Under the pieces are notes generated by a model, which searched no databases, was not told where the DNA came from, and saw only the letters and a program-made list of their open reading frames with translations. The translations under genes were made by a program, and so were the position numbers. A DNA stretch of 64,000 bases from Nitrospirota bacterium (GTDB taxonomy: Bacteria > Nitrospirota > UBA9217): NCBI GenBank assembly GCA_963796285.1, contig CAWCKW010000012.1, positions 1,312,001 to 1,376,000 on the forward strand, given 5' to 3'. Below are positions 191 to 44,015 of this stretch, piece by piece (position 1 is the stretch's first letter; each line of letters begins with the position of its first letter).

Positions 191-1072
191 ATGTCAATGG
201 CAGAAGCGGACTTCTCGAAAAAAGAAAAAAATTATTATACGGACATCCCGCAAAAGAGCGAAGCTTTTTTCCTGAAAGGATCGAACGCCTATGACTGGGG
301 CATGAAGAACAGGCTGGCCCGCATCTTCAATCCCCGGTCCGGGAAGACCGTGATGCTGGCCTTCGACCATGGGTATTTCCAGGGCCCCACGACCGGTCTC
401 GAGCGCGTTGACGTAACGATCCGGCCACTCATACCCTACGCCGACGCCCTGATGCTGACGCGCGGCATCCTGCGCTCCGTCATCGAACCGTCGTCGACCA
501 ACGCGGTGGTCATGCGCGCAAGCGGCGGGCCGAGCATCCTGAAAGAGCTTTCCAACGAGCATATCGCCGTGGACATCGAGGACGCTTTGCGCATGAACGT
601 GAGCGCAGTGGCGGTGCAGGTCTTTATCGGCGGCCCTCACGAGACCCAGACGGTCAATAACATGACCCGGCTCGTCGATATGGGCATGCGCTACGGCATG
701 CCGGTGCTCGGGGTCACGGCGGTCGGTACGGAGCTTGTCCGCGATGCCCGGTATATCGGACTGGCAACGCGCATCCTGGCAGAACTCGGGGTCTCGATCG
801 TCAAAACCTATTTTGTCCCGGGGTTCGAGCAGGTCGCCGCCGCGTGTCCCGTGCCGATCGTGATCGCGGGCGGAAAAAAACTTCCCGAACGCGAGGCGCT
901 TCAGATGGCCAGGGATGCGATCAACCAGGGCGCCTCCGGTGTGGACATGGGCAGGAACATTTTTCAATCCGATTCGCCGGTTGCCATGATCAGTGCCGTG
1001 CGCATGGTCGTGCACGACAACGCCACGGTGAATGAGGCTTACGAATACTACCAGGATATGAAGAACAAATAA
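191..1072 (+). CDS. lsrF: 3-hydroxy-5-phosphonooxypentane-2,4-dione thiolase (LsrF, class I aldolase fold)
   Basis: [34 protein letters not shown] and [14 protein letters not shown] motifs; AGGAGG RBS at 184-189. Confidence 0.9.
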
Positions 1073-1088
1073 AGAGGATCAATGTCGT

Positions 1089-1165
1089 TGGCACTGATAT
1101 TCACTGATAAAGCCTATGAAGAATCATGTTTTTTCATAGCCGTTATCCGCCCTTAATCTGTGTCA
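1089..1165. repeat. Degenerate intergenic palindrome with ~10-bp tandem units (CACTGATATT/CACTGATAA ... TTATCCGC..AATCTGTG)
   Basis: Arms 1089-1110 and 1143-1165 are partly complementary; inner CTATGAA/TTCATAG stem. Confidence 0.5.
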
Positions 1166-1237
1166 AAGGTTATGCATCGTTGCAGTTTATTGTTTCCCGC
1201 TTCCAGCTTTTCCGTTTCGGGTGATAGGTAATTTGAC

Positions 1238-2266
1238 TTGAAAACAGGCGTCTACTATCGCAACAGCGACGTCCGGGTGGAAGAGCGTCCGGAGCCGAAG
1301 GCCGGCGACCGCGACATCGTGGTCAAGGTCATGGCCTGCGGTCTGTGCGGGTCCGATCTCATGGAATGGTACCGGATCAAGCGGGCGCCGCTGGTGCTGG
1401 GCCACGAGCCGGCCGGCATTGTTGTCGAAGCAGGAAAACTCGTCAGCACCGTCAAACCGGGAGACCGCGTCTTTGTCACCCACCATGTCCCCTGCAATTC
1501 CTGCTATCACTGCCGTAGCGGACACGAAACCGCCTGCACGACCTTCCAGAGCACAAATAATTTCGATCCCGGCGGTTTTTCACAACTCCTGCGCGTGACC
1601 GGAAAAAGCGTTGAGACCGGTACCTTCGTGCTTCCCGACTCCGTGAGTTTCGAACAGGCGACCTTTATCGAACCGCTGGGGACCGCGGTGAGGGCGCTCC
1701 GGACCGTGGGACTGAAACCAGCCCAGAGCGTGCTCGTCTGCGGCAGCGGCGTTGCCGGCCTGCTCATCATCAAACTGGCGCGTGCCATGGGAGCAGGCGT
1801 CATCATCGCGACCGATGTGAGCCCGTACCGTCTTGAGAAGGCCCGTGAATACGGGGCCACGCACACGATCGAAGCCCACGAAGACGTCCCCGCGTTCATC
1901 AGAACAGTCAATGAAGGCCGATTGGCGGACATCGCCATCCTGTGCGCCGGCGCGCTTCCTGCCGCGCGCACCACGCTTCAATCCGCCGAGCGCGGAGGCA
2001 CCATCCTGTTCTTCGCAGTGCCGAAACCGGGCGAGACCGTTGCTGTGGATTTCAATCCCTTCTGGCGTGACGATATCACGATCAAGACCTGCTACGGCGC
2101 CGCCCCCATCGACAACCTGCAGGCCCTCGATCTCATCCAGCACGGCACAGTGACGGTGACCGACATGGTGACGCACCGGTTCGGCATCGACAGGATCGGC
2201 GAGGGATTTCTGACCGGCGCCCGGCCCGACGGCTGCGTGAAGGTCATTATCGAGCCGAACCAGTAA
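1238..2266 (+). CDS. Zn-dependent alcohol/polyol dehydrogenase (MDR family, iditol-DH-like)
   Basis: ACGLCGSD, LGHE, structural Zn CNSCYHCRSG..C, Rossmann GSGVAG. Confidence 0.9.
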   Translation: MKTGVYYRNSDVRVEERPEPKAGDRDIVVKVMACGLCGSDLMEWYRIKRAPLVLGHEPAGIVVEAGKLVSTVKPGDRVFVTHHVPCNSCYHCRSGHETACTTFQSTNNFDPGGFSQLLRVTGKSVETGTFVLPDSVSFEQATFIEPLGTAVRALRTVGLKPAQSVLVCGSGVAGLLIIKLARAMGAGVIIATDVSPYRLEKAREYGATHTIEAHEDVPAFIRTVNEGRLADIAILCAGALPAARTTLQSAERGGTILFFAVPKPGETVAVDFNPFWRDDITIKTCYGAAPIDNLQALDLIQHGTVTVTDMVTHRFGIDRIGEGFLTGARPDGCVKVIIEPNQ

Positions 2267-2415: not shown

Positions 2416-3657
2416 GTGAAACAGCAAACCACAACTAATCTCCGCCATATTCTCAGCCTGCCGGTCATCGTAGCCTCACTCGGCTACTTCGTCGATATTT
2501 ACGACCTGGTGCTCTTCAGCATCGTCCGGGTGCCGAGCCTGAGATCGCTCGGACTTTCCGGGCAGGACCTGATCGACAACGGCGTGTTTCTTCTCAATAT
2601 GCAGATGGCGGGCATGCTCATCGGCGGCATTCTCTGGGGCGTCCTGGGTGACCGGAAGGGCCGGCTGAAGATCATGTTCGGCTCGATCTTCCTGTACTCC
2701 ATCGCGAACATCGCGAACGGGATGGCCACGTCCCTTCCCGCCTACGCGGCCCTGCGCTTCATCGCCGGCATCGGGCTGGCCGGCGAGCTCGGGGCGGGGA
2801 TCACCCTCGTGTCCGAGGTCCTGCATACCAGCATCCGGGGGTACGGCACGATGCTCGTGGCCTCCGTGGGCGTCTCGGGCGCCATCCTCGCGAACATCAT
2901 CGCCAATACCTATGACTGGCGGAACGCCTTCATCATCGGCGGCGTACTCGGCCTCGTGCTGCTCATCACCCGGATCAGCGTGGCCGAGTCCGGCATGTTC
3001 CGGGCCATGAACAGGAAGGCCGGGGTCAGCAGGGGGAACCTGCTTGCCCTCTTTTCCGAACGGAAGCGTTTCCTCCGCTATCTCAACTCGATCCTGATCG
3101 GCGTCCCGATCTGGTTCGTCGTCGCTGTCCTGATCACCTTCTCGCCGGAGTTCGCCAAATCATTCGGGACGACCGGACCGGTCTCCGCCGGAAACGCGGT
3201 CATGTTCTGCTACCTGGGGCTGGTCTTCGGCGATCTTTCGAGCGGCCTGCTGAGCCAGGTCCTGAAGAGCAGGAAAAAGGTGGTCTTGCTGTTCATGCTC
3301 CTGAGCCTTGTTGCCATCGGCATCTACTTCCTGCAGGGGAGCAGGAGCCCGGAATTCTTTTACGGGGTGTGCCTCGTACTCGGATTTGCCAGCGGCTACT
3401 GGGCCATCTTCGTGACCATTGCCGCCGAGCAGTTCGGCACGAACCTGCGCGCGACGGTCGCGACAACCGTGCCGAACTTCGTGCGCGGGATGGTGGTCCC
3501 CATCACGCTTCTATTCCAGTTCTTTCGCCAATACTTCGGCCTTGAGGGCGGCGCTCTTGCTGTCGGGGCCATCTGCGTGGTTGCAGGCTTCTTTGCGCTT
3601 GCCTCCCTGGAAGAGACGTTTCATAAGGACCTGGATTATTATGAGGAGTTTCCCTGA
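2416..3657 (+). CDS. MFS transporter
   Basis: About 12 hydrophobic segments; GVLGDRKGR motif A; GTG start after GGAG. The ORF extension to 2269 reads through the REP element. Confidence 0.85.
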   Translation: MKQQTTTNLRHILSLPVIVASLGYFVDIYDLVLFSIVRVPSLRSLGLSGQDLIDNGVFLLNMQMAGMLIGGILWGVLGDRKGRLKIMFGSIFLYSIANIANGMATSLPAYAALRFIAGIGLAGELGAGITLVSEVLHTSIRGYGTMLVASVGVSGAILANIIANTYDWRNAFIIGGVLGLVLLITRISVAESGMFRAMNRKAGVSRGNLLALFSERKRFLRYLNSILIGVPIWFVVAVLITFSPEFAKSFGTTGPVSAGNAVMFCYLGLVFGDLSSGLLSQVLKSRKKVVLLFMLLSLVAIGIYFLQGSRSPEFFYGVCLVLGFASGYWAIFVTIAAEQFGTNLRATVATTVPNFVRGMVVPITLLFQFFRQYFGLEGGALAVGAICVVAGFFALASLEETFHKDLDYYEEFP

Positions 3658-3875: not shown

Positions 3876-4878
3876 ATGACTGATAAGATCGGTGTGATCG
3901 GCGCAGGGGCATGGGGCACGGCCCTTGCTATGCTTCTTGCCGACAAAGGGTACGACGTGACCCTCTGGATGTATGAAAAGGACCTTGCCGAAGAGACGGC
4001 TCGCACGAGAGAGAACCGCGTCTATCTCCCCGGGTTTCCCTTGACCGGCTCCATCCAGGTGACCTCTGCTCTTGAAACCGCTGTCAGGAACAAGCCGGTC
4101 ATTCTGTCCGTCGTCCCCTCCCACACGGTCCGTACTGTAGCAAAACAGTTTGCCCCCTTTCTATCGGAGAACGCCATCATCATCAGCGCTTCCAAGGGCA
4201 TTGAGACCGACACTCTCATGCCGCTCTCAGAGGTGTTCAAGGACATCCTGCCCGAAAGGGTTTCATGACCGGCTCTGCTTTCTTTCCGGCCCGAGCTTTG
4301 CGAAAGAGGTCGCCCAGAAGATGCCCACCGCTGTTGCCCTCGCTTCGTACGACCCGGCAGTGGGCAAGAAGGCCCAGGAGGTCTTCAGCAACGCCTACTT
4401 CCGTGTCTATACGAATCCCGATGTCCTCGGCGTGGAGCTCGCGGGTGCGCTCAAGAACGTCGTGGCCATTGCTGCGGGCGTGCTCGAAGGCATGGGCTTC
4501 GGATATAACACCATGGCCGCCCTGCTCACCCGCGGGCTCGCGGAAATGGCTCGCCTCGGCGTGGCCATGGGAGGAGAACTCCAAACCTTCTCCGGCCTTG
4601 CAGGCATGGGAGATCTGGTCCTTACTTGTACAGGAGGCCTGTCGAGGAACCGAACCCTTGGATCGCGGCTCGGCAAAGGCGAGAAACTGGACGATATCAT
4701 GCGAGGGACAAAGACCGTGGCCGAAGGCGTCAAGACCGCCCGGGCCGCGCGTGACCTAGCACAAAAATACAATATCGCAATGCCGATCGTCGAGGAGGTC
4801 TATCAGCTCCTCTACGAAGGCAAGGACCCGAAGCTCGCCGTGAAGGACCTGATGAACCGTGAGCTCAGAGCAGAGTGA
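3876..4878 (+). CDS. gpsA: NAD(P)H-dependent glycerol-3-phosphate dehydrogenase (frameshift near 4260, probable sequencing error)
   Basis: GAGAWGTALA, SASKGIE, LSGPSFA, GALKNVVAIAAG, GDLVLTC, SRNR motifs across two frames. Confidence 0.9.
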
Positions 4879-4906: not shown

Positions 4907-5752
4907 ATGAATACATCAAAACTCACCAAGCTTCTCCAAAGCGTTAGGTCCGGCAAGATCGATGTCGAAACCGCTCTCAACCGGCTCAAGCACCTGCCCT
5001 TCGAGGACGTGACATACGCCAACATCGACCATCATCGCCACTTGCGCCACGGCATGCCCGAGGTCATCTACTGCGAAGGGAAGACCCTGGAGCAGGTCGT
5101 CGGCATCACGAGGCGCATGCTCAAGGCCGGGAGCGACATCCTCGCCACCCGCGCGTCGGAAGCGGTCTATAAAGCAGTTAAGAAACTCGATCGCCGCGCG
5201 GTATATCACAAAGCCTCACGCGCCATCGTGGTACAGGACAAGAAGAAGACACTGACCAGCGGTATTGTGCTCGTCCTGACCGCAGGCACATCGGATATCC
5301 CCGTTGCCGAGGAGGCCGCCGTGACCGCGGGGATGCTCGGCAGCACTGTACAGACCGTATACGACGTGGGCGTGGCAGGGATCCACCGCATCCTGAGCAA
5401 ACGGGAAACGCTCGACTCCGCCAGGGTGATCGTCGTGGTAGCGGGCATGGACGGCGCGCTCCCATCGGTCGTGGGCGGGCTCGTGGACAAACCAGTGATC
5501 GCCGTTCCCACGAGCGTCGGCTACGGCGCCGGGTTCAAGGGACTGGCCCCGCTCCTCACCATGCTCAACTCCTGCGCGTCAGGCATCGCGGTCATGAACA
5601 TCGACAACGGCTTCGGCGCCGGAGTGCTGGCGCACAGGATAAATCTATTGGGAGAAAATAATCAAGAAGCGCCCCCTCCTTCGAAATCGGGGAGAATCCC
5701 GGGAAATGAAAAAGGATGGATCAGCGTTAAGAGAATTTCAGGTAATCGCTGA
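4907..5752 (+). CDS. larB: Nickel-pincer cofactor biosynthesis protein LarB (PurE-like)
   Basis: IDHHRHLRHGMPEVIYCEGKT, TAGTSDIPVAEEA, DVGVAGIHR, AGMDGALPSVV, NIDNGFGA. Confidence 0.9.
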   Translation: MNTSKLTKLLQSVRSGKIDVETALNRLKHLPFEDVTYANIDHHRHLRHGMPEVIYCEGKTLEQVVGITRRMLKAGSDILATRASEAVYKAVKKLDRRAVYHKASRAIVVQDKKKTLTSGIVLVLTAGTSDIPVAEEAAVTAGMLGSTVQTVYDVGVAGIHRILSKRETLDSARVIVVVAGMDGALPSVVGGLVDKPVIAVPTSVGYGAGFKGLAPLLTMLNSCASGIAVMNIDNGFGAGVLAHRINLLGENNQEAPPPSKSGRIPGNEKGWISVKRISGNR

Positions 5753-8242: not shown

Positions 8243-9436
8243 ATGACCCTCGCTTACTTCGACTGCTTTTCCGGGATATCCGGCGACATGACCCTCGGCG
8301 CGCTTGTTGACGCGGGTGTCTCCATCGACGCCCTGCGCGCCGAGCTGGCCAGGCTCAATCTCCCCGGCTACGAGCTCAAGGCAGAAAAGGTCAAACGCTC
8401 CGGCATTGCCGCGACCAAGGTCCATGTCATCATCGACCAGAAGGACCAGAACGCGCGCCATCTTGCCGACATTTTGAGCATTATTGAAGCCTCCACCCTT
8501 TCTCCAACCGTGAAGGAGAAAAGCAGCCGGATATTTACACGCCTTGCTGATGCGGAGGCAAAGGTGCACGGCACAACACCCGACAAGGTCCACTTCCATG
8601 AGGTCGGCGCTGTGGACTCCATCGTGGACAATGTCGGGGCTGTTATCGGACTGGAGCTGCTGGGAATCAAGCGGGTCATGGCATCGGCGATCAATGTGGG
8701 TTCAGGCATGGTCAAAACCTCTCACGGCATGCTTCCGGTACCCGCACCCGCCACGGCGGAGCTGCTTACCAACATCCCCTTTTATCAATCGTCGTCACAA
8801 TTCGAGCTCACCACACCGACCGGCGCGGTCATCATCAGCACTCTCGCTTCCTCCTTCGGCCCCATGCCGGCGATGAAGGTCGAGCGGGTCGCCTATGGCG
8901 CGGGCGACAAGGATTTCCCGGGTCAGCCGAATGTCCTGAGGCTCATGATCGGACAGCCCATAGCGGGTTATGAAGAAGACACGTCCATCGTCATCGAGAC
9001 GAACATCGACGACATGAGCCCGCAGGTCTATGACTACCTCATCGAGAAGCTCATGCAGCAGGGCGCGCAGGACGTTTATCTCACACCCATTATCATGAAA
9101 AAAGGAAGACCCGCGATCCTGCTCTCGGTGCTTACTGATAAGACAAAGACAGATGCCGTGCTCGATACGATCTTCCGGGAAACGACCAGCATCGGCGTCC
9201 GTATCCATGAAGTTGGCAGAAAGAAGCTCACGCGGGACATCCGGGAAGTCGATACGGTTTATGGCAAGATCAGAATAAAGATAAGCAGGCGGGCTGATGA
9301 AGTAGTGACGATAACACCGGAGTATGAGGACTGCAGAAGGATCGCGGAAAAAATGCAGATACCTTTAAAGCAAATCATGGAAGAAGCGAAAGACATGTTT
9401 TCTCGCAAAGACGCAAAGGGCGCAAAGGAAAGCTAA
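8243..9436 (+). CDS. larC: Nickel insertion protein LarC
   Basis: YFDCFSGISGDMTLGAL, VHFHEVGAVDS, PVPAPAT, ELTTPTGA, ETNIDDMSPQ, MKKGRP, PEYEDC. Confidence 0.92.
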   Translation: MTLAYFDCFSGISGDMTLGALVDAGVSIDALRAELARLNLPGYELKAEKVKRSGIAATKVHVIIDQKDQNARHLADILSIIEASTLSPTVKEKSSRIFTRLADAEAKVHGTTPDKVHFHEVGAVDSIVDNVGAVIGLELLGIKRVMASAINVGSGMVKTSHGMLPVPAPATAELLTNIPFYQSSSQFELTTPTGAVIISTLASSFGPMPAMKVERVAYGAGDKDFPGQPNVLRLMIGQPIAGYEEDTSIVIETNIDDMSPQVYDYLIEKLMQQGAQDVYLTPIIMKKGRPAILLSVLTDKTKTDAVLDTIFRETTSIGVRIHEVGRKKLTRDIREVDTVYGKIRIKISRRADEVVTITPEYEDCRRIAEKMQIPLKQIMEEAKDMFSRKDAKGAKES

Positions 9437-32338: not shown

Positions 32339-33400
32339 ATGATCCCGACCGTTGAATGGAAGAACGGCATCGTCCGGATGCTGGACCAGACAAAACTGCC
32401 CCTTGAGACCGTGTACAACGACTGCAAGGACTACCAGACCGTGGCGCGCGGGATCAAGGAGCTCTGGGTGCGCGGCGCGCCGGCGATCGGGGTCTCGGCT
32501 GCCATGGGACTGGCTCTCGGTGCGCGTCAGATCACGGCGGGTTCATTCGAAGAATTCTGGCCGAAGTTTGAAGAGATCTGCTCATACATGGCGGCCACGC
32601 GCCCGACGGCAGTGAACCTTTTCTGGGCCATCGAGCGGGTAAAAAAATTCGTGCAGGCCAATAGAGATAAGGACCTTGACGCCCTTCGAGCGATGGTGGT
32701 AGAGGAATCACAGCGCATGCACGATGAGGACATCGCAACCAACATGCGGATGGGCGCCTACGGTTCCGTGTTCGTGTCCGACGACGACAATATCATCACG
32801 CACTGCAATGCCGGTTCGATCGCCACGGCGGGCTACGGGACAGCCGAAGGCGTTATGCGTTCGGCCGTGGCTCAAGGGAAAAAGATCCATGTCTACGTGG
32901 ACGAGACCCGACCGGTGCTCCAGGGCGCGCGCCTGACCGCGTGGGAGCTCATGCAGGAGAACATCCCCTGCACGTTGATCACGGACAATATGGCCGGTTA
33001 CTTCATGTACCGCGATATGATCGATCTGGCGATCGTGGGTGCGGACCGCATAGCCCGGAACGGCGACGTGGCGAACAAGATCGGCACCTACGGTCTCGCG
33101 GTCCTGTGCAAGGAGCATGGCATTCCCTTCTATGTGGCCGCGCCGCTCTCGACCATCGACTTTACCATGGAATCAGGCGTCCTGATCCCCATTGAAGAAC
33201 GCGACCCCCGCGAGGTCACCCATGTGTTCGGCAAGGTCCAGATTGCGCCCAATGGCGTCAAGGTGGCGAACCCGGCATTCGATGTAACGCCGGCCCGCTA
33301 CATCACGGCCATCATCACCGAAGTCGGCGCCTTCCATCCAAAGGACATCCACAAACTTGCCGATGGTAAGACCGATCCAGAAAAGCTAAGATTGACATAG
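32339..33400 (+). CDS. mtnA: S-methyl-5-thioribose-1-phosphate isomerase
   Basis: LDQTKLP, VRGAPAIG, TRPTAVNL, THCNAG, DETRP.LQGARLTAWEL, NPAFDVTP. Confidence 0.95.
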   Translation: MIPTVEWKNGIVRMLDQTKLPLETVYNDCKDYQTVARGIKELWVRGAPAIGVSAAMGLALGARQITAGSFEEFWPKFEEICSYMAATRPTAVNLFWAIERVKKFVQANRDKDLDALRAMVVEESQRMHDEDIATNMRMGAYGSVFVSDDDNIITHCNAGSIATAGYGTAEGVMRSAVAQGKKIHVYVDETRPVLQGARLTAWELMQENIPCTLITDNMAGYFMYRDMIDLAIVGADRIARNGDVANKIGTYGLAVLCKEHGIPFYVAAPLSTIDFTMESGVLIPIEERDPREVTHVFGKVQIAPNGVKVANPAFDVTPARYITAIITEVGAFHPKDIHKLADGKTDPEKLRLT

Positions 33401-43123: not shown

Positions 43124-44015
43124 TTATTTTTTCTTCAGGTATTTCCCGATGATCAGCGCCAGGTCTTTCCTCGTTTTCGCCGGCATCAGTTTCTCCGGCG
43201 TCATGATCGTGTTCCGGAGCGCTTCGCCGCATCCGCAGGTGCGTGATCCGGACAGCATGCGCACCGCTTCGCGGATCATGGCCTTGGACGTCTCGACGTT
43301 GTGTTTCATTACCGCGAGCACGGCCTCAACGGTCACGGCCTCCTCGCTGTGGTGCCAGCAATCGTAGTCCGTGGCCAAGGGCAATGGTGCTGTAGCAGAT
43401 CTCCGCCTCGCGCGCCAGCTTGGCCTCGGTTGCGTTCGTCATGCCGATGACATCCACGTTCCATGTCCGATAGATGAGCGACTCGGCCCGGGTCGAGAAT
43501 TGCGGGCCCTCCATGCAGAGATACGTGCCGCCACGGTGTACCGTGGCCCCGACCTTCACCCCTGCCTCGCTCAGGATCCTGCCGAGGTCGGTGCAGACCG
43601 GGTCCGCCATGCCCACATGCGCCACAACGCCGTTGCCGAAAAAGGTGCTCCTGCGGTGCTTCGTATGATCATAGAACTGGTCCGGGATCACGATATCGCC
43701 GGGTTTGATCTCTTCCTTCATGCTGCCTACGGCGCTCACCGAGATGATCCGTTCAACACCGAGTTTCTTCATACCGTAGATGTTCGCCCGGTAGTTGATG
43801 TCCGAGGGAAGGATGCGGTGGCCGCGGCCGTGCCTCGGGAGGAAGGCAACCCGTTTGCCATGCAGCGTACCGACAAGGTAATCGTCCGAAGGCTTGCCGA
43901 AGGGCGTTATCAACTTCACGGCCTTGATCTGCGTCAGCCCTTCCATTTCATACAAGCCGCTGCCGCCGATCACGCCGATGCTGATTTTTTCTGTCTTTGT
44001 ACGACCCCTTGCCAT
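43124..44015 (-). CDS. mtnP: S-methyl-5'-thioadenosine phosphorylase (frameshift near 43380)
   Basis: [47 protein letters not shown]. Confidence 0.92.

Follow-up and report, generated by a model that had tools for sequence, protein, structure and literature searches.

The window, which is the whole 64,000-nucleotide stretch of Nitrospirota DNA that was analysed, opens with a gene for an LsrF-like CoA thiolase of the class I aldolase fold (positions 197 to 1,072, forward strand; an alternative start of the reading frame lies at 191). Its 291-residue product matched the NCBIfam equivalog model NF006081 with 486.2 bits against a cut-off of 297 (3-292 of 293 aa covered), shared 63.3% identity with LsrF of E. 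coli K-12 over 286 aa, and matched PDB 3GKF with 396 bits. All nine residues named in PMC2728841 are kept, namely the Schiff-base Lys203, Asp57, Asp251, Met252 and the phosphate-site residues His58, Gly226, Gly227, Gly253 and Arg254. Across 100 LsrF orthologs, D57, H58, K203, G226, G227, G253 and R254 were present in every protein, and D251 and M252 in 95. The products of E. coli LsrF are given in PMC7828210 as DHAP and acetyl-CoA, in agreement with the RefSeq product name for LsrF, and the window protein is expected from its sequence to catalyse the CoA-dependent cleavage of a diketone phosphate to these two products.

After a spacer of 165 bp (1,073 to 1,237; in relatives the two genes range from a 4-bp overlap to about 180 bp apart) follows a gene on the same strand (1,238 to 2,266) for a 342-residue, NAD-type, Zn-dependent MDR dehydrogenase (ADH) of the polyol/threonine-dehydrogenase subfamily (Pfam ADH_N and ADH_zinc_N). 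It reached the cut-off of no NCBIfam equivalog, the best being Tdh. For L-threonine 3-dehydrogenase (NF003808/TIGR00692) it stayed below both equivalog cut-offs, at 177.2 bits (cut-off 380) and 169.8 bits (cut-off 458). In a PDB comparison the nearest solved relatives were sorbitol dehydrogenase, ketose reductase and L-threonine 3-dehydrogenase; the nearest relatives of known structure (sorbitol, threonine 3- and butanediol dehydrogenases) oxidise a penultimate secondary alcohol. In 40 of 40 orthologs the catalytic Zn ligands (C37, H56, E57, E145), the structural Zn cysteines (C86, C89, C92, C100), the GxGxxG motif and D193 were invariant. In MDR/Rossmann-fold enzymes an Asp at the position of D193, after GxGxxG, marks a preference for NAD over NADP.

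Further downstream lie a multi-copy repeat element (2,295 to 2,383; 10 more matches, 74-96% identical, at other places in the assembly), an MFS transporter gene (forward strand, about 2,420 to 3,657, start approximate; Pfam MFS_1) and gpsA, encoding an NAD(P)H glycerol-3-phosphate dehydrogenase (forward strand, 3,879 to 4,878), which a frameshift near 4,260 splits into halves scoring 127 and 304 bits against NF000942. The gene order lsrF, MDR dehydrogenase, MFS transporter, gpsA given in the preliminary description was thus found, but of these neighbours only the dehydrogenase is a recurrent partner. The MFS gene stood beside the LsrF-ADH pair in 4 of 100 loci, all from close relatives, and also occurs in a genome without the pair (G063); the pair had gpsA as a neighbour in 10 of the 100 loci, exclusively from the window's own Nitrospirota family (f1). 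Both genes are lineage-specific synteny and, like the repeat, lie outside the conserved module.

The window protein resembles LsrF of E. coli and Salmonella over its full length (63% identity), in its Schiff-base lysine, acid/base aspartates and phosphate cradle, and in the reaction expected of it, diketone phosphate plus CoA to DHAP and acetyl-CoA, but the lsr system of those organisms is missing here. In the 3.58-Mb assembly of the window's genome (G000, 96% complete), tblastn searches with E. coli LsrK, LsrR, LsrC, LsrD, LsrB and LsrG gave no match at E<=1e-3, LsrA matched generic ABC ATPases only, and LuxS (PF02664) had no match. Upstream of position 1, where the preliminary description had allowed for a full lsr operon, the adjoining 18 kb instead encode pilus/T2SS components, ElyC and a CBS protein, together with a split P-type ATPase and fragments of integron integrase; the description's claim of an lsrF without an lsr operon stands. 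Degradation of phosphorylated autoinducer-2 (AI-2), as quorum quenching or as use of exogenous AI-2, with the dehydrogenase incidental or a stand-in for LsrG, would agree with the equivalog-level LsrF match and with one locus of the 100 (L139, Solirubrobacterales), in which an LsrK homolog adjoins LsrF. However, LsrK neighbours LsrF in that locus only, no homolog of LsrK, G, B, C, D or R and no LuxS was found in the 96%-complete genome, the redox-neutral isomerisation by LsrG is not replaceable by a redox enzyme, and the mutual exclusivity described below would have no meaning. We therefore regard AI-2 degradation as highly unlikely.

Partners and replacements of LsrF

An ortholog of the dehydrogenase was present in 44 of the 49 LsrF-containing genomes among 201 Nitrospirota, and in 1 of the 152 that lack LsrF; in 40 of those 44 the two genes lay side by side on the same contig. 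The dehydrogenase adjoined LsrF in 26 of 30 Nitrospirota loci, lay directly downstream of it in all five LsrF-containing genomes of a Geobacteraceae-containing order, and was its same-strand neighbour in 41 of 100 loci drawn from many phyla. The MAGs in which LsrF and the dehydrogenase were found carry the labels of about a dozen phyla. The recurrence exceeds chance, in counts that overstate independence because the genomes are related. These results bear out the link between this dehydrogenase clade and LsrF outside lsr operons that the preliminary description had put forward.

In 33 other loci of the 100, the partner was a fusion of a class II aldolase with an SDR, scoring 804 bits for NF006194 (cut-off 686). 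Among named families this fusion comes closest to the rhamnulose-1-P aldolase/dehydrogenase TIGR02632, though its 463 bits do not reach the cut-off of 568. ADH and the fusion never occurred together beside LsrF in the 100 loci. A dehydrogenase is thus the usual LsrF partner, in one of two forms. An RPE-like epimerase was present in 11 of the 100 loci; its role and that of the aldolase half of the fusion are not explained by the model proposed below.

Genomes with LsrF were largely devoid of class II aldolases. Aldolase_II was found in 3 of 49 LsrF-containing Nitrospirota genomes, all three of the fusion type beside LsrF, versus 108 of 152 genomes without LsrF. Within family f1, 15 genomes carried LsrF, 27 the aldolase, none both and 3 neither, and the switch falls within genera (g1, g6, g10 and g11); a search for class II aldolase (PF00596, E<=1e-10) gave no match in G000 or in the other 14 LsrF-containing genomes of this family. 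Family f11 showed 5 genomes with LsrF versus 8 with the aldolase, with no overlap. In the Geobacteraceae-containing order, LsrF was present in 5 of 121 genomes and the aldolase in 112, with none having both and 4 having neither. The anti-correlation with class II aldolase-family genes that had been anticipated was therefore seen in two separate lineages.

The aldolase concerned is about 400 aa long and reaches no NCBIfam cut-off, its best match being NF006413 (164 bits; cut-off 203). In 13 of 20 loci, a gene for an aldehyde:ferredoxin oxidoreductase (AOR) lay directly upstream of it on the same strand. This AOR was found in 37 of the 201 Nitrospirota genomes, 36 of which also had the aldolase; it was found in none of the 49 with LsrF, and a search of G000 gave no match. 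In G063, this AOR occupies the site at which G000 has lsrF-ADH, and the flanks are shared (the upstream segment on one side and MFS-gpsA-larB on the other). These data point to LsrF-ADH and the ~400-aa aldolase with AOR as interchangeable two-gene modules; one or the other occurs in 117 of 121 genomes of the Geobacteraceae-containing order and in a large part of the anaerobic Nitrospirota.

The exchange bears on the direction of the pathway. The reaction is formally reversible and DXP would be among the reduced products, so a biosynthetic use is conceivable, in which LsrF would join acetyl-CoA and DHAP and the dehydrogenase would reduce the resulting diketone, forming 1-deoxyxylulose-5-P or another deoxypentulose phosphate. 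However, the module swaps with a plainly catabolic aldolase and aldehyde oxidoreductase, the invariant D193, presumably a mark of NAD use, fits a catabolic dehydrogenase, and G000 carries dxs, whose two frameshift-separated parts score 511 and 365 bits; we give this reverse reading very little credence.

Possible supply of the substrate

The window also contains mtnA, for (5-methylthio/5-deoxy)ribose-1-phosphate isomerase (32,339 to 33,400, forward strand; TIGR00512, 438.5 bits against 279), and mtnP, for MTA/5'-deoxyadenosine phosphorylase (43,124 to 44,015, reverse strand; TIGR01694, 286.5 bits against 274.85). The TIGR01694 match spans the N-terminal 213 aa of mtnP; past a frameshift at about 43,330-43,440, the C-terminal part continues in a different frame (43,124 to 43,438). 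Because gpsA, dxs and a P-type ATPase gene are also split in this genome, the frameshift may reflect assembly indels rather than decay. In G000, MtnK and an MtnB/Ald2-type aldolase had no match, and MtnN scored below its cut-off (46 against 73.8 bits). The preliminary description had drawn on the presence of mtnA and mtnP in the same window as lsrF. Their presence was confirmed, but they are separated from lsrF by 31 kb and 42 kb, respectively, and form no cluster with it.

The chemistry claimed in the preliminary description is correct on paper: oxidation of 5-deoxyribulose-1-P at C4 gives 3-hydroxy-5-phosphonooxypentane-2,4-dione, the LsrF substrate. Such an oxidation fits the kinship of the ADH with polyol and threonine dehydrogenases.

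Comparison across genomes seldom showed the suggested co-location of lsrF with these genes. mtnA was linked to lsrF in 2 of 100 loci, both from one clade and both of the SDR-fusion variant, with no ADH; one (L124) has the contiguous row mtnA-(aldolase/SDR)-lsrF, and the other (L108) has mtnA-aldolase-SDR 5.5 kb upstream of lsrF. mtnP adjoined lsrF in none of the 100, neither gene was found within 10 kb in any of 41 ADH-type loci, and there was no SAM-type riboswitch near lsrF in 7 loci. Co-occurrence did hold, with MtnA in 48 of the 49 LsrF-containing Nitrospirota genomes, but it does not discriminate, since MtnA is nearly universal with or without LsrF (190 of 201 Nitrospirota genomes and 121 of 121 in the Geobacteraceae-containing order). 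An MtnA match was missing in three aldolase-containing genomes, G063 (97% complete), G164 (86%) and G200 (100%). The 12 genomes of family f3 and most of family f17 have MtnA with neither module, which indicates that other fates exist.

A further gene, for RLP, is relevant to what the substrate may be. In two loci (L049 and L050), confined to one lineage, family f18, a gene for an RLP-cupin fusion stands immediately beside lsrF, and an RLP of the same clade is encoded in G000, 132 kb away, clustered with a split transketolase. Like the mtnA-linked loci, the fusion speaks for a tie between LsrF and the salvage of SAM by-products, though in few lineages. The RLP-cupin pair would reportedly yield 1-deoxyxylulose-5-P from MTRu-1-P, judging from work on R. 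rubrum. Oxidation of this sugar phosphate at C4 would also give the LsrF substrate, and the same logic could apply to a 6-deoxyhexulose-1-phosphate (L-fuculose-1-P or L-rhamnulose-1-P, giving lactyl-CoA) or to ribulose-1-P or xylulose-1-P (giving glycolyl-CoA). Consistent with such other substrates are the f18 fusion, the nearest named family of the aldolase/SDR fusion, the RPE-like epimerase in 11 loci, and the FucA-type class II aldolases present in related genomes. On the other hand, neither the 100 LsrF loci nor the 20 aldolase loci show a conserved neighbouring sugar isomerase, kinase or transporter, the LsrF active site is the same as in the acetyl-releasing enzyme, and the nearly either/or distribution of the modules (117 of 121) is more in keeping with a housekeeping substrate than with a dietary sugar. 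The route through RLP is further disfavoured because RLP occurs in both LsrF- and aldolase-containing genomes and was not found in the LsrF-containing families f4, f8, f11 and f13. We consider a substrate of this other kind improbable, though clearly less so than AI-2 degradation or the biosynthetic reverse.

A proposed two-step module and its relation to known pathways

The observations are gene linkage, co-occurrence, mutual exclusivity with the aldolase and AOR, exchange at a syntenic site and conserved residues; from them we infer the substrate and every catalytic step. We think it probable, though far from certain, that lsrF and the ADH gene form a self-contained two-step catabolic module for 5-deoxyribulose-1-phosphate made by MtnP and MtnA, replacing the aldolase and AOR. 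5'-Deoxyadenosine, a by-product of SAM, would be converted by MtnP and MtnA to 5-deoxyribulose-1-phosphate. The ADH would then oxidise the penultimate hydroxyl of this 1-phospho-2-ketose with its terminal deoxy carbon to a 3-hydroxy-2,4-diketone phosphate. As the 63% identity and fully conserved active site suggest, K203 of LsrF would form a Schiff base at the phosphate-proximal carbonyl, and the distal acyl group would pass to CoA with release of DHAP and acyl-CoA. The net products from 5-deoxyribulose-1-P would be DHAP, acetyl-CoA and NADH. MTA-derived 5-methylthioribulose-1-phosphate may be handled likewise, giving methylthioacetyl-CoA. In the alternative module, the ~400-aa aldolase, predicted to act on 5-deoxyribulose-1-P, would cleave first, to DHAP and an aldehyde, and AOR would then oxidise the aldehyde to the acid. 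The earlier interpretation as a whole is thus partly supported.

The proposed module differs from the lsr system in the origin of its substrate, which would come from oxidation of a deoxy-ketose phosphate and not from phosphorylation and isomerisation of DPD, and in its dehydrogenase partner; its role would be salvage or catabolism rather than signal termination. The uncharacterised aldolase and AOR pair of the Geobacterales order and Nitrospirota fills the same phyletic slot and is predicted to perform the same net conversion up to the acid/thioester level, but by cleaving before oxidising, with ferredoxin instead of NAD+, and to a free acid instead of an acyl-CoA. A parallel in logic is Tdh-Kbl (L-threonine 3-dehydrogenase and 2-amino-3-ketobutyrate CoA ligase), in which an MDR dehydrogenase oxidises a CH3-CHOH- group and a second enzyme cleaves the resulting beta-dicarbonyl with CoA to give acetyl-CoA. 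The order of oxidation and CoA-dependent cleavage is the same and the ADH has Tdh among its nearest relatives, but the substrate class is different, LsrF has a Schiff-base class I aldolase fold whereas Kbl is a PLP enzyme, and the ADH, at 177 bits, misses the Tdh cut-off of 380.

The MTA-isoprenoid shunt of R. rubrum is said to consist of RLP and a cupin methylsulfurylase. The RLP-cupin fusion beside LsrF in f18 and the same-clade RLP in G000 recall this shunt, which was described for Rhodospirillum rubrum in PMC4958253, but RLP is not tied to the LsrF/ADH switch. The DHAP shunt, or 5-deoxyribose salvage, is described in PMC6079011, PMC10986504 and PMC12632272 as consisting of MtnP or MtnK/DrdK, MtnA/DrdI and the class II aldolase Ald2/DrdA. 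The proposed module would share its entry enzymes, MtnP and MtnA, and its product DHAP; in contrast, a class II aldolase was not found in the window's genome, and the ketose phosphate would undergo oxidation and then thiolysis, with acetyl-CoA and NADH formed in place of free acetaldehyde.

We found no published account that reads LsrF and the dehydrogenase as a salvage pathway. A wider proposal, to which we give slightly less than even credence, is that the two constitute a widespread means of disposing of 5'-deoxyadenosine, and possibly MTA, through the 'AI-2' diketone phosphate to DHAP and acetyl-CoA. This route and a second undescribed module, in which the ~400-aa class II aldolase and a tungsten-type AOR would make up the DHAP shunt of anaerobes, would freely stand in for each other. 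Salvage would then be the ancestral job of LsrF, borrowed by the enterobacterial AI-2 pathway, and other sugars derived from SAM would reach the diketone by way of the NF006194 fusion, the RPE-like epimerase and the RLP-cupin fusion.

The known disposal clusters are called 'far from ubiquitous' in PMC6079011, and LsrF-ADH most likely represents an undescribed recycling of sugar waste from S-adenosylmethionine enzymes. If this is true, annotations of 'autoinducer-2 aldolase/thiolase' in genomes without an AI-2 system would be re-assigned; LsrF in ammonia-oxidising archaea, as treated in PMC11442133, is an example of the label being taken as evidence of quorum sensing. The module would also add a means of recovering acetyl-CoA and NADH without the release of a free aldehyde.

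An LsrF homolog and its dehydrogenase outside an lsr system

The open reading frame at 191/197-1072 on the plus strand encodes a homolog of E. coli LsrF, the 3-hydroxy-5-phosphonooxypentane-2,4-dione thiolase, and scores 486 bits against the NCBIfam equivalog NF006081, whose cut-off is 297. The protein is 63% identical to LsrF of E. coli K-12 over 286 residues and matches the LsrF crystal structures at 396 bits. The structural report (PMC2728841) names the Schiff-base lysine K203, the residues D57, D251 and M252, and the phosphate-site residues H58, G226, G227, G253 and R254, all of which are kept in the window protein. Assignments as an AroA'-type ADH synthase (188 bits) or an archaeal-type FBP aldolase (111 bits) were rejected, both scores lying far under the cut-off.

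A Zn-dependent MDR dehydrogenase of 342 aa (1238-2266; hereafter ADH) begins 165 bp after lsrF. It reached none of the curated equivalogs, the best being Tdh at 177 bits against 380, and among solved structures it is closest to sorbitol dehydrogenase, ketose reductase, L-threonine 3-dehydrogenase, and the butanediol and xylitol dehydrogenases. These relatives oxidise a penultimate secondary alcohol. Residue D193, which follows the GxGxxG motif at a position that we take to be a marker of NAD preference, is invariant across the ADH orthologs, as are R46, H82, H83, R277 and K335. A search for riboswitches and other RNA control elements returned tRNAs alone in 135 kb of 7 loci, and a scan for promoters and terminators ahead of lsrF gave a number of sites not above that in shuffled sequence.

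Downstream, a repeat element of about 89 bp (2295-2383), matched at 10 further places in the assembly with 74-96% identity, lies between ADH and an MFS transporter gene and artificially lengthens the MFS reading frame upstream. The transporter is followed by gpsA (3879-4878), which is split by a frameshift, then larB (4907-5752; NF033503, 296 bits); a larC-like frame (nickel-pincer cofactor insertion) at 8243-9436 was recognized by eye only. Membership of the transporter and of gpsA in a unit with LsrF and ADH was rejected, as they adjoin the pair in 4 and 10 of 100 loci, respectively, all close kin; furthermore, MFS-gpsA-larB is kept in a genome without LsrF-ADH (G063). Single frameshifts also split otherwise intact genes for mtnP, a P-type ATPase (L009:12511-15052), an integrase (L009:16516-17459) and dxs (G000:C12:1511781-1513629), which suggests that these splits, like that of gpsA, are assembly indel errors and not pseudogenes.

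The preliminary description had reported lsrF and a dehydrogenase without an lsr operon, and this was confirmed on the source assembly (G000; 13 contigs, 3.58 Mb, 96% complete), in which the window is G000:C12:1312001-1376000; close homologs come from MAGs labelled Nitrospirota. The 18 kb upstream contain pilus/T2SS genes, ElyC, the split P-type ATPase, a CBS protein and integron-integrase fragments. The fragments (L009:16516-17459; TIGR02249, 227 bits against a cut-off of 265) lie on the minus strand about 0.7-1.7 kb upstream of lsrF, divergent from lsrF-ADH. Queries with E. coli LsrK, LsrR, LsrC, LsrD, LsrB and LsrG found no match in the whole assembly, nor did LuxS and MtnK, and MtnN remained under its cut-off. 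Because these genes are unmatched and the upstream region is unrelated, the AI-2 annotation is not borne out by context: the window protein agrees with E. coli LsrF in sequence and active site, whereas its genome does not share the operon context of the lsr system. Of 100 loci, only one, from a Solirubrobacterales MAG (L139:8430-9973), has an LsrK homolog next to LsrF; it lies directly upstream, is 42-45% identical and is frameshifted. About 9 loci, the majority without an adjacent dehydrogenase, have a small glyoxalase/VOC-fold protein (about 130-145 aa) beside lsrF (cluster 37 in L110, L121, L126, L129 and L134; cluster 47 in L123 and 3 others); these proteins may be an isomerase replacing LsrG.

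Partners of LsrF across genomes

LsrF orthologs were found in 49 of 201 Nitrospirota genomes, a 50th match (G015) being only 29% identical and left uncounted. ADH adjoins LsrF in 26 of the 30 Nitrospirota loci returned; the remaining four are a contig end and three genomes from family f18. Phylum-wide, an ADH ortholog of at least 43% identity occurs in 44 of 49 LsrF-positive genomes versus 1 of the 152 others (G043, 85% complete), a paralog of 35-41% identity that is present in genomes with and without LsrF having been left out of this count. The two genes are side by side on one contig in 40 of the 44, and in the other four both lie at contig ends. These numbers bear out the proposed tie between this ADH clade and lsrF outside lsr operons.

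We then clustered, by all-ORF BLAST, 100 loci made up of 20 extended Nitrospirota loci and 80 further loci, 66-92% identical, whose MAGs carry the labels Desulfuromonadaceae, Geobacteraceae, Fibrobacterota, Gemmatimonadota, Acidobacteriota, Thermoleophilia, SAR324, Spirochaetota, Planctomycetota, Latescibacterota, Myxococcota and others. In 40 loci (41 by tblastn), ADH lies before or after LsrF on the same strand, and in 33 LsrF is adjoined in the same orientation by a class-II-aldolase/SDR fusion of about 700 aa, with an RPE-like epimerase between LsrF and the fusion in 11. No locus holds both ADH and the fusion, and no other conserved neighbour of LsrF was found in the 100 loci. The fusion scores 804 bits against NF006194 (cut-off 686) and does not belong to the RhaEW equivalog. 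LsrF, epimerase and fusion form a conserved cluster (L076-L140, 33 loci; for example L084:2758-4860 and L137:10891-11640), hosted by Gemmatimonadota, Fibrobacterota, Acidobacteriota, Planctomycetota, Myxococcota, beta-proteobacteria and SAR324. In long loci without a partner, LsrF has unrelated neighbours (a beta-lactamase, peptidases, a polyprenyl synthase, a restriction-modification system) and a second glyoxalase-fold family. The restriction-modification system belongs to G142 (L054:10261-11872), where an MjaI-type restriction endonuclease and a DNA methylase take the place of ADH beside lsrF, close to the end of the contig.

LsrF and the class II aldolase-AOR module

The Pfam domain Aldolase_II is present in 108 of the 152 Nitrospirota genomes without LsrF versus 3 of the 49 with it; these three belong to f18, and their domain is that of the fusion beside LsrF. 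In the window's own family (f1), LsrF occurs in 15 genomes, the aldolase in 27, both in none and neither in 3 (85-89% complete), and the switch takes place inside four genera. Family f11 divides 5 versus 8 with no overlap, and f20, f23 and f24 show the same either/or behaviour. The aldolase of these relatives is a protein of about 400 aa whose C-terminal Aldolase_II domain is under every NCBIfam cut-off and whose N-terminal half has no Pfam match; an atlas look-up with its N-terminal 212 aa led to nothing but clusters of this uncharacterised class II aldolase (scoring 0.90 at best), and a metagenome scan returned 4 short contigs. Other Aldolase_II matches in Nitrospirota include a true MtnB in an mtnW-mtnX-mtnB operon (f10) and a FucA-like protein (f16).

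The comparison was replicated in the order that holds the Geobacteraceae MAG of locus L098 (121 genomes). Here LsrF occurs in 5 genomes, with ADH directly downstream in all five, and Aldolase_II in 112, mostly in the 400-aa architecture; the two never occur together, and both are missing from 4 genomes. The chance of finding all five LsrF-positive genomes among the nine without aldolase is about 6e-7 by our own arithmetic, a value that is optimistic owing to kinship. The anticipated anti-correlation between LsrF and a class II aldolase thus held in both f1 and the second order, where no genome carries both.

In a quick tree, in which E. coli LsrF sits on a long branch and its place is unreliable, the window LsrF belongs to a supported clade of 20 rows, made up of ADH-linked proteins of f1, Fibrobacterota, Geobacteraceae, Desulfuromonadaceae and Thermoleophilia. 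A distinct clade of 18 rows unites the ADH-linked LsrFs from the other Nitrospirota families. This two-clade pattern, together with the presence and absence within genera and the integrase fragments upstream, suggests that LsrF-ADH may move as a cassette.

In 13 of 20 loci, the 400-aa aldolase is directly preceded on its own strand by a gene for an aldehyde:ferredoxin oxidoreductase (AOR), the median gap being 107 bp (11 of 11 loci from the second order and 2 from Nitrospirota; L143, L146, L155-L165). In G063 (f1, genus g6), which has the aldolase and lacks LsrF but keeps the upstream segments and MFS-gpsA-larB of the window, the site of lsrF-ADH holds an AOR of 564 aa (L174:1755-3449) that is 54% identical to the aldolase-linked AORs. 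The source genome has no match to the aldolase-linked AOR; across the phylum, AOR occurs in 37 of 201 genomes, 36 of which also have the aldolase, and in 0 of the 49 with LsrF. The linkage, the replacement in G063 and the absence of AOR from LsrF-positive genomes therefore indicate two alternative two-gene modules. Both would convert a 1-phospho-2-ketose to DHAP and a two-carbon unit at the acid oxidation level, aldolase and AOR by cleavage followed by oxidation, and ADH and LsrF by oxidation followed by CoA-dependent cleavage. Functional equivalence of LsrF-ADH to aldolase plus AOR is well supported by these genome comparisons. The aldolase-AOR pair itself looks like an uncharacterised housekeeping module and is possibly an anaerobic DHAP shunt.

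Candidate substrate of the LsrF-ADH pair

The best-supported candidate, as the preliminary description proposed, is the product of MtnP and MtnA, 5-deoxyribulose-1-P (perhaps also MTRu-1-P), which would be oxidised by ADH and then cleaved by LsrF. Among the 201 Nitrospirota genomes, 190 carry MtnA (145 of 147 of high quality), as do 48 of the 49 with LsrF and all 121 of the second order; the source genome has no match to an MtnB-type enzyme acting after MtnA, and neither the LsrF nor the aldolase module has a conserved sugar kinase, isomerase or transporter nearby, which together favour the MtnA product. It is also favoured because oxidation at C4 would yield precisely the compound that LsrF cleaves and the active site of LsrF is unchanged, and because the ADH subfamily oxidises CH3/CH2OH-CHOH- groups and D193 is invariant. 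Further support comes from two lineages, one for each link. In locus L124, mtnA, aldolase/SDR and lsrF are contiguous, and in the related L108, mtnA-aldolase-SDR lies 5.5 kb upstream of lsrF. In f18, a RuBisCO-like protein (RLP) with a C-terminal cupin (528 aa) abuts lsrF (L049:10346-11932, minus strand; L050:4380-5960, plus strand), with the aldolase/SDR fusion nearby.

The preliminary description had linked the pair to mtnA and mtnP in the same window. Both genes are real, but they lie 31 kb (mtnA, 32339-33400) and 42 kb (mtnP, 43124-44015, minus strand, frameshifted) from lsrF, and the expected co-location was not found: MtnA adjoins LsrF in 2 of 100 loci, MtnP in none, and neither is linked to the pair in the 41 ADH-type loci. 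The observation behind the proposed route stands; sharing one window is no linkage. The mtnA and RLP-cupin links to lsrF each occur in one lineage only. MtnA is too widespread to discriminate between genomes with and without LsrF. Three genomes (G063, G164, G200) have the aldolase and no MtnA match, and f3 and most of f17 have MtnA without either module. The MtnA-product reading does not explain the RPE-like epimerase or the aldolase half of the fusion.

An RLP gene of the source genome (G000:C12:1444810-1445964; L150:6807-7964; minus strand) lies 132 kb from lsrF in a split-transketolase cluster that also holds a 519-aa SDR-like protein and a GalT-like protein; in a Spirochaetales MAG (L114:3699-6790), RLP and split transketolase are arranged likewise, some 5 kb from LsrF-ADH. 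RLP as an obligatory member was rejected: this type is common to LsrF-positive and aldolase-positive f1 genomes and was not found in LsrF-positive f4, f8, f11 and f13. Being present in both kinds of genome alike, RLP lies outside the switch and is phyletically independent of LsrF. An alternative DXP synthesis replacing Dxs was also rejected, as dxs is present in the source genome.

Compared with the DHAP shunt, the source genome has the first two steps but no match to the defining aldolase. Beaudoin et al. (PMC6079011) state that other disposal strategies must exist, and our literature search, supplementary files excepted, found no paper tying LsrF to 5'-deoxyadenosine, methylthioadenosine, 5-deoxyribulose or the DHAP shunt. 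The best-supported reading of the gene content is that LsrF-ADH would be a variant of SAM by-product salvage, the DHAP shunt, built from a re-purposed "AI-2" enzyme. If true, SAM by-products would be salvaged with an enzyme annotated for AI-2 breakdown, here unlinked to the lsr system.
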